Below, in pieces: positions 16,221 to 16,571 of a DNA stretch of 42,916 bases. A program made the translations under genes and the position numbers. Numbering within the stretch: the first letter of the stretch is position 1; each line of letters opens with the position of its first letter. The DNA comes from Escherichia phage PhiR55_1. The notes under the pieces are model-generated. The model worked only from the letters and a program-made list of their open reading frames with translations. It ran no database searches and had not been told where the DNA came from. The DNA is taken from the sequence record PV340571, one strand, 5' to 3'.

Positions 16221-16571
16221 ATGACTCAAAACTATGAACTGATTGTGAAAGGGATCCGCAATTTTGAGAATAAAGTTACGGTAACTGTAGCGTTACGGGA
16301 CAAAAAACGCTTTGACGGTGAAATTTTTGACCTGGACATCTCGCTGGACCGTGTTGAAGGTGCCGCGCTGGAGTTTTATGAGGCAGCAGCCAGAAGGAGC
16401 ATCAGACAGGTCTTCCTGGATGTTGCTGCCGGGTTATGTGAAGGGGATGAGCAGTCGCCGGAAAAGCGCCCCGTAATTTTAGATGCGCAGAATGTGTGGA
16501 TAACCTACAAAGGAAAGCTACCAGGAAGAATTACTGGTTCTCTGAAGACTCCTCCGGAATCACAACCTTAA
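16221..16571 (+). CDS. Hypothetical 116-aa soluble protein inserted between holin and endolysin
   Basis: GGGGAGAG ribosome-binding site 7 nt upstream of the ATG, 5 bp after the holin stop; no transmembrane segment; no family recognised. Confidence 0.5.
   Translation: MTQNYELIVKGIRNFENKVTVTVALRDKKRFDGEIFDLDISLDRVEGAALEFYEAAARRSIRQVFLDVAAGLCEGDEQSPEKRPVILDAQNVWITYKGKLPGRITGSLKTPPESQP

Follow-up and report, generated by a model that had tools for sequence, protein, structure and literature searches.

Between the holin gene and the endolysin gene of Escherichia phage PhiR55_1 (sequence record PV340571) lies an open reading frame (ORF) that belongs to the ydfR (DUF1327) family and whose identity, distribution and likely role are considered here. 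The window is the full stretch of 42,916 nucleotides (nt) that was analysed, and all window positions count from its first letter. A previous sequence-only reading had taken this ORF for an unknown gene inserted in a cassette composed of a pinholin and a signal-arrest-release (SAR) endolysin, and had proposed that its soluble product might modulate lysis timing or be late-expressed cargo. The cassette and the subdivisions of the gene are as follows.

16001..16216, plus strand: S21-type class II holin (pinholin), 71 aa; Pfam Phage_holin_2_1, 'P21 holin S', E=2e-35, and PHROG holin families
16206..16213, plus strand: Shine-Dalgarno sequence GGGGAGAG, within the final holin codons and here driving ydfR
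16221..16571, plus strand: ydfR-family gene (DUF1327), ATG start, 116 aa plus stop; from the ORF list, Pfam and the ratio of nonsynonymous to synonymous substitution rates (dN/dS)
16221..16436, plus strand: codons 1-72, conserved N-terminal domain; delimited by AlphaFold2, 83% identity to K-12 and stand-alone homologues
16437..16568, plus strand: codons 73-116, C-terminal region, lineage-specific and mosaic, with a low-confidence structure
16572..16634, plus strand: ydfR-endolysin spacer of 63 bp, without a Shine-Dalgarno sequence for the endolysin gene R; from junction comparisons
16635..17168, plus strand: SAR-type endolysin (R), 177 aa; Pfam Phage_lysozyme, E=2.2e-24
17165..17632, plus strand: i-spanin Rz; Pfam Phage_lysis, E=9e-29, and PHROG Rz-like spanin
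17385..17591, plus strand: o-spanin Rz1, embedded in Rz and ending the cassette; lipoprotein-like ORF and record annotation

The anatomy of the junction is in agreement with what had been read from the letters. The holin stop codon (TAA, 16214-16216) is followed by the four bases TTCA and then by the ydfR ATG at 16221, which is the position '5 bp after the stop' given previously, and the ribosome-binding site had rightly been called strong: the duplex of GGGGAGAG with the 3' end of 16S rRNA has an energy of -8.5 kcal/mol, matching the holin and Rz starts in strength. The flanking genes were also correctly described, since the holin, besides its match to P21 holin S, presents the dual start Met1-Lys-Ser-Met4 (Met1 codon at 16001, Met4 codon at 16010), and the product of R combines its lysozyme match with a weakly hydrophobic N-terminal segment at residues 9-27 (Kyte-Doolittle mean 1.65). 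YdfR itself contains no hydrophobic segment, its highest 19-residue Kyte-Doolittle mean being 0.71 versus values of 1.72 (holin) and 1.65 (endolysin), and the hydropathy profile gave no transmembrane segment, signal anchor or signal peptide. The 116-aa protein is thus predicted to be soluble, as proposed, and cytoplasmic, and a membrane or secreted regulator of lysis was ruled out on the same values. The antiholins LydB of P1 and RI of T4 have the membrane or the periplasm as their site of action.

On the plus strand, a scan limited to consensus sequences found no promoter-like site between 14612 and 17207 and no terminator-like site between 15957 and 17805. Given this result and the location of the gene downstream of Q, ydfR can be placed in the late transcription unit, and the proposal that it is transcribed together with the lysis genes appears well founded. 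Terminator-like GC hairpins with T tracts flank the cassette on the plus strand, one just before the holin gene (15940-15956) and another (17806-17825) past a small ORF that follows Rz; these hairpins would need readthrough by the Q-modified polymerase. The small ORF (17620-17772, plus strand, 50 aa) overlaps the last bases of Rz and is conserved (phrog_11822, E=8.6e-38), being annotated as hypothetical in the mEp460 and PhiR40_1 records. The N-terminus of its product is strongly hydrophobic (Kyte-Doolittle mean 2.07); it may be a small membrane protein that closes the lysis cassette.

Family identity, selection and predicted fold

Homology search, which the sequence-only reading had suggested together with structure prediction and a comparison of related phages, placed the protein in a named family. 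It matched Pfam DUF1327/YdfR (PF07041) with 146.7 bits (the cut-off being 25) and E=2.4e-43, residues 1-112 aligning with positions 1-92 of the 93 in the model. DUF1327 was the only Pfam family matched, and no known lysis-regulator family was among the results; the best PHROG match had E=8.9e-69, and all matching PHROGs are labelled 'unknown function'. NCBIfam holds no model for the protein, PADLOC returned no defence-system match for it, and the family profile matched no solved structure (best E=0.62). The cassette of phage PhiR40_1 (PV340560.1) is 100% identical to that of the window at an offset of 16 bases, and its protein XSB42402.1, also 100% identical, is annotated 'hypothetical protein, YdfR family'.

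The same family includes YdfR of E. coli K-12 (P76160), encoded in the Qin prophage, with a full-length Pfam match. The gene order in Qin resembles that of the window: the holin gene essQ (216 bp; labelled essD in the RefSeq record used), a gap of 4 nt, ydfR, rrrQ and rzpQ, and the holin-ydfR junctions are near-identical in sequence, with the same layout and the same Shine-Dalgarno site. Residues 1-72 of K-12 YdfR are 83% identical to the window protein, whereas beyond approximately residue 72 the two tails are unrelated (19% identity). The arrangements also differ in that K-12 ydfR overlaps rrrQ (ATGA), while a 63-bp spacer occupies this place in the window, and in that Qin is defective, while PhiR40_1 was deposited as a complete phage genome. 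On sequence grounds, the ORF is almost certainly a YdfR/DUF1327 member and the orthologue of Qin ydfR. The gene is therefore already known, as it belongs to a named Pfam family, is annotated in a phage record and is present in E. coli K-12; the description 'unknown gene' holds for its biological role but not for its identity.

Sequence comparison further indicates that ydfR is a real gene under purifying selection. Over codons 1-72, the dN/dS ratio (Nei-Gojobori) was 0.23-0.35 versus K-12, BP-4795 and the prophage loci L003, L015 and L016, with dS values of up to 1.7 and counting the four comparisons in which synonymous change was sufficient; for codons 73-112, with few sites, it was 0.3-0.9. 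These low ratios, the Pfam and PHROG E-values given above and the 343 homologues described below put the ORF beyond chance. The idea that it is a filler without function, untranslated or functionless and persisting only because the spacer recombines, could draw on the absence of a demonstrated function, on the mosaic tail and on the many truncated or fused variants found in databases. However, constraint of this kind at such synonymous divergence, a strong and conserved Shine-Dalgarno site, and an N-terminal domain with invariant residues and a confidently predicted fold that is kept across six genera leave that idea with hardly any probability.

The mosaic nature of the gene was apparent from the comparison with BP-4795, in which dS was 1.67 for the N-terminal part and 0.21 for the C-terminal part; this contrast points to recombination inside ydfR. 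Within the family, the tails give rise to proteins of 103, 104, 114, 116, 169, 176 and 183 aa, and divergence sets in directly after a ...KTPP motif. In the long forms (169-183 aa; L003, L016), a predicted coiled-coil extension, TALRSEKDDIES..., starts exactly at this recombination point; its end overlaps a convergent reverse ORF, and one such copy is a pseudogene in RefSeq. Internal duplications of the domain occur in some E. coli entries (P0069, P0093).

The conserved domain is also the part that could be modelled. From a shallow alignment of the full-length protein, AlphaFold2 modelled the N-terminal part with moderate confidence and the tail at a predicted local distance difference test score (pLDDT) of about 41-44. 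With distant homologues included in the alignment, residues 1-75 reached a pLDDT of 88.5 and a predicted template modelling score of 0.73, the model consisting of antiparallel strands (residues 5-14, 18-27 and 33-43) followed by a single long helix (50-71). Tyr53 and Glu54 (Y53, E54) are invariant throughout the superfamily, R44, G47, A57, A61 and A69 are kept in most members, and basic residues of the helix at positions 59/60/62 are conserved across the superfamily. A double-stranded RNA-binding domain (alpha-beta-beta-beta-alpha fold) was suggested by recurring weak matches and a KKxAK-like motif, and membership was not accepted.

Distribution in lysis cassettes and the start of the endolysin gene

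The notion of an unusual insertion did not survive the comparison with other phages and prophages. Among 437 phage records with an S21-type holin, ydfR/DUF1327 was present in 100 (23%) and absent from the remaining 77%; H-19B, BP-4795 and YYZ-2008 are among the records that carry it, as are many Stx1a and Stx2c phages. The complete E. coli genomes gave 8,617 ydfR matches versus 16,913 matches to S21-type holins, and 4,349 of the 5,426 genomes contained the gene, with up to 10 matches per genome. Besides K-12 Qin, the order holin-ydfR-lysozyme was seen in 7 loci, among them mEp460, BP-4795, PhiR12_2_star and three other E. coli prophages. Consequently, with the same junction occupied in Qin, mEp460, H-19B, BP-4795 and many Stx1 and Stx2c phages, ydfR is, as judged from these sequences, a common optional element of the cassette. 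The statement that the endolysin gene normally comes directly after the pinholin gene was likewise too strong, as it holds for about half to three quarters of cassettes. Within this type of cassette the ORF is conserved, yet not characterised as a component of lysis.

In this behaviour ydfR recalls the lambdoid morons bor, lom and stx, being optional, located at late-region module boundaries and found in several alternative slots, including that of stx: in an O55:H7 prophage, a DUF1327 gene reportedly occupies the stx2d position (PMC9413875). In the window itself, the slot occupied by stx in Shiga-toxin phages, between Q and the holin gene, holds a gene for an N6/N4 DNA methyltransferase of 350 aa (14881-15933, plus strand), which has the same place in mEp460. 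A classical moron is expressed from the prophage, being equipped with a promoter and a terminator of its own. The window ydfR, by contrast, needs the late transcript for its expression and a Shine-Dalgarno site internal to the holin gene for its translation, and an autonomous moron was ruled out because the consensus scan found no flanking promoter-like or terminator-like site.

Comparison of cassettes with and without ydfR, the latter exemplified by Stx2 II and mEp332, revealed precise junctions and an effect on the neighbouring gene. Where ydfR is lacking, R begins 4 nt past the stop codon of the holin gene in Stx2 II and overlaps it in mEp332, and the Shine-Dalgarno site within the holin gene serves whichever gene comes next, namely R in Stx2 II. 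Pairing with the anti-Shine-Dalgarno sequence for the R start has an energy of -8.5 kcal/mol in Stx2 II and -7.1 kcal/mol in mEp332. When ydfR is present, the strong site belongs to ydfR (-8.5 kcal/mol in the window, mEp460 and BP-4795; -9.5 kcal/mol in K-12), and the energy for R lies between +1.1 and -2.8 kcal/mol in all seven cassettes examined, window R being at +0.3. By capturing the holin-embedded site, ydfR thus leaves the endolysin gene to start after an A/T-rich leader without one. A conserved A/T-rich block (16582-16634) before R is common to all ydfR-bearing cassettes examined, and relatives have an inserted reverse-strand ORF immediately before it. An RNA element in the ydfR-R spacer was ruled out, because Rfam gave no match in the lysis cassette and the 63 bp fold no better than shuffled sequences (z=0.07). 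From this arrangement we infer that the presence of ydfR should change endolysin translation.

These data bear directly on the possibility that YdfR is a modulator of lysis, acting either as a protein in trans, its target being the pinholin, the antiholin form of the pinholin or, at its cytoplasmic end, the SAR endolysin, or mainly in cis, in which case ydfR, by taking the Shine-Dalgarno site and separating R from it, would lower or delay the endolysin relative to the holin. Such a role is favoured by the lack of a Shine-Dalgarno site for R in 7/7 ydfR-bearing cassettes and the presence of a strong one in those without the gene, and by the fact that ydfR is accompanied by the spacer block and by the 5' end of R. 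The position of the gene is also constant in Escherichia and Shigella, where a holin gene, a gap of 3-4 nt, ydfR and R followed each other in 8/8 loci inspected. Precedent exists for accessory regulators inside lysis cassettes, such as the releasin gp25 of phage Mu (DUF2730), which acts on SAR endolysins (PMC9239132) and, like ydfR, is encoded by an extra small gene among the lysis genes of a phage with an endolysin of this type. However, gp25 is membrane-tethered and shares no sequence similarity with YdfR, which is soluble, has neither membrane segment nor signal peptide, and whose domain also occurs away from lysis genes; moreover, most phage records with an S21-type holin do without ydfR.

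Phenotypic data from K-12 can be read on both sides. The Keio ydfR deletion scored positive for chlorophenol red-β-D-galactopyranoside (CPRG) in the envelope screen of Paradis-Bleau et al. (PMC3879167 supplement), which was counted in favour of a lysis modulator; however, the effect could be polar, from the kan cassette into the SAR endolysin gene rrrQ. The same CPRG gene lists also hold the Qin genes ydfU, ydfA, ydfB and ydfD (PMC3879167 supplement). Overexpression of K-12 YdfR altered few transcripts, left growth unaffected and produced no lysis phenotype (PMC13232886). Taking these points together with the relatives of the domain found in tail modules and beside other families of holins, we consider a lysis-modulating role rather unlikely.

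Contexts of the DUF1327 domain outside these cassettes

Close homologues of the window protein formed 343 clusters among 5.8 billion proteins and came from Escherichia and Shigella only. A profile search of 1.84 billion representatives brought in short homologues (72-86 aa) that stand alone and cover positions 1-72. Cluster members and the contigs encoding them, which supplied the taxonomy and the gene contexts, assign these proteins to Yersinia, Sodalis, Cronobacter, Citrobacter and Salmonella; one of them matched the window gene in a reciprocal tblastn search (E=4e-7). Two genome scans for distant homologues, each with a single protein as query, found nothing.

The genes for the stand-alone proteins are found in places different from that of ydfR. 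They lie between tail genes M and L (Sodalis is among such loci); in Yersinia they follow a tail-I-like gene, in Citrobacter and Salmonella they come behind the tape-measure gene, and in Cronobacter they directly follow Rz in a cassette with holins of the Phage_holin_8 and Phage_holin_3_7 families. At locus L010, a gene with a tandem double DUF1327-like domain stands upstream of a Phage_holin_2_3 holin. Its product P0190 (L010 5001-5531) and P0192 from Salmonella enterica are proteins of 170-176 aa with two such domains in tandem; the L010 gene is downstream of Q, and the region also contains ParE and HicAB toxin-antitoxin genes. In all the contexts examined, the domain was encoded in the late region, oriented like the late genes. 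Since it occurs in tail modules, after Rz and next to other holins, it is not specific to pinholin/SAR cassettes and, as far as these sequences tell, has no fixed link with S21 holins, with SAR endolysins or indeed with lysis genes. The occurrence of the domain alone at other late positions and beside unrelated holins argues for accessory cargo rather than for a core or pinholin-specific lysis factor, and it is probable that YdfR is late cargo without a specific function in lysis.

A further arrangement seen at these loci is a convergent ORF on the reverse strand. The positions are given within each locus.

L003 2958-3218, reverse strand: convergent ORF directly past the DUF1327 gene
L016 2000-2260, reverse strand: convergent ORF directly past the DUF1327 gene
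L017 1811-2083, reverse strand: convergent ORF directly past the DUF1327 gene
L005-L011, L018-L020 and L023, reverse strand: further ORFs of this kind

This raised the possibility that ydfR is half of a two-gene moron, a self-contained module that would consist, for example, of a factor expressed in the lysogen and a late-expressed counterpart (for exclusion, defence or counter-defence), and that the window contains a solo copy whose partner was lost. An ORF of 70-186 aa follows the DUF1327 gene convergently in nine of the ten distinct types of distant locus, Sodalis being the exception, and also in the E. coli cassettes L003, L016 and L017. The partners encoded at L007, Yersinia L009 and Citrobacter L019 share 39-47% identity despite their different positions among tail genes, one partner family being co-inherited across Yersinia and Citrobacter, and the two E. 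coli partner types are present in 314 and 1,125 of the 5,426 genomes. Reverse-strand genes are otherwise rare in late operons, which was also counted in favour of such a pair. However, the partners are heterogeneous, falling into different PHROGs and unrelated families, and the profile-profile comparison (hhalign) of the E. coli with the Yersinia/Citrobacter family gave a probability of 0.3%. They have no Pfam match, and in PADLOC the partner ORFs, like the long YdfR form, scored only marginally (E ~1e-3). In addition, the copies in the window, K-12, BP-4795, mEp460 and Sodalis are partnerless, with ydfR intact and under purifying selection, and a variable slot for reverse-strand morons beside ydfR fits the data at least equally well. 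A single conserved two-gene system was rejected, as pairwise BLAST and hhalign put the partner ORFs in unrelated families, and pairing of this sort was kept as a minority explanation of quite low probability.

Two observations concern regions of the window far from the cassette. Rfam matches above the gathering score were obtained for isrK (7836-7912, plus strand, 67 bits) and for C4 antisense RNA (7937-8024, plus strand, 83.6 bits); both are in the early-right region, inside a gene annotated 'Rha protein', and resemble the antisense control of an antirepressor-like gene of the P1/P7 type. At the left end of the prophage, a YafM/YafO-like antitoxin-toxin pair is annotated at approximately 206-1196 of the window (222-1212 in the PhiR40_1 record).

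A possible link to RNase E

A lead on the function of ydfR, a gene that is still listed as uncharacterised (PMC11551758), came from the K-12 protein. Göpel et al. (2026) isolated a fragment comprising YdfR residues 1-72 in a two-hybrid screen (PMC13232886), and two-hybrid signals with residues 1-597 of RNase E (Rne) were obtained for both this fragment and full-length K-12 YdfR (PMC13232886). FLAG-Rne 1-598 co-purified with Strep-YdfR from lysates, and the eluate held nucleic acid that resisted DNase (PMC13232886). In another screen, ydfR overexpression raised the minimal inhibitory concentration of streptomycin three-fold (PMC12924614). Because the binding fragment is the part with 83% identity to the window protein, binding to RNase E can be ascribed, in predicted form, to the latter.

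Small phage proteins that contact host RNase E offer an analogy. Srd of T4 binds and activates the catalytic N-terminal half of the enzyme (PMC4980113), while T7 gp0.7 phosphorylates its C-terminal half and Dip of phiKZ blocks RNA-binding sites of the scaffold (PMC4980113). Srd and the K-12 orthologue share the N-terminal catalytic half as their target, and the window protein shows no homology to Srd, gp0.7 or Dip.

The sequence of events that can be envisaged is as follows. The ydfR message would be part of the late transcript that depends on Q, and its translation would rely on the strong Shine-Dalgarno site within the holin gene, the product probably appearing alongside the lysis proteins. 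The conserved domain would then act independently of the lysis system, binding host RNase E through the catalytic N-terminal half of the enzyme, with RNA perhaps also bound, and mRNA decay could thereby be adjusted in the final lytic phase. Of the two roles put forward in the sequence-only reading, cargo fits better than a modulator of lysis timing, in view of the contexts without lysis genes and of the report on RNase E. Through the predicted cis effect on endolysin translation, the gene may also have some lysis-related role. Our tentative explanation, the best overall, is that ydfR is late-expressed, host-directed accessory cargo whose product most likely binds RNase E. That modulation of RNase E is its biological role in this phage is conceivable but rather doubtful. 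There is only a low probability that DUF1327 is a widespread effector of temperate Enterobacterales phages on RNase E, to which a rewiring of the translation of the holin and endolysin genes (S:R) would be added in Escherichia, or else that it is part of a two-gene module with the reverse ORF.

What makes the gene worth pursuing is its function, the RNase E lead, the displacement of the Shine-Dalgarno site and the reverse-strand slot beside it, all the more as ydfR is among the commonest uncharacterised genes of E. coli prophages, Stx1 and Stx2c phages included. The displacement at the endolysin start may matter for the engineering of lysis cassettes and for the reading of ydfR knock-out phenotypes. 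The DUF1327 domain, if the link with RNase E is true, would be the first RNase E-docking factor in lambdoid phages. If RNase E is indeed modulated, the stability of late-gene mRNA, and of toxin-adjacent mRNA in Stx phages, could be affected, and phage control of host RNA decay would extend from the virulent T4, T7 and phiKZ to lambdoid prophages.

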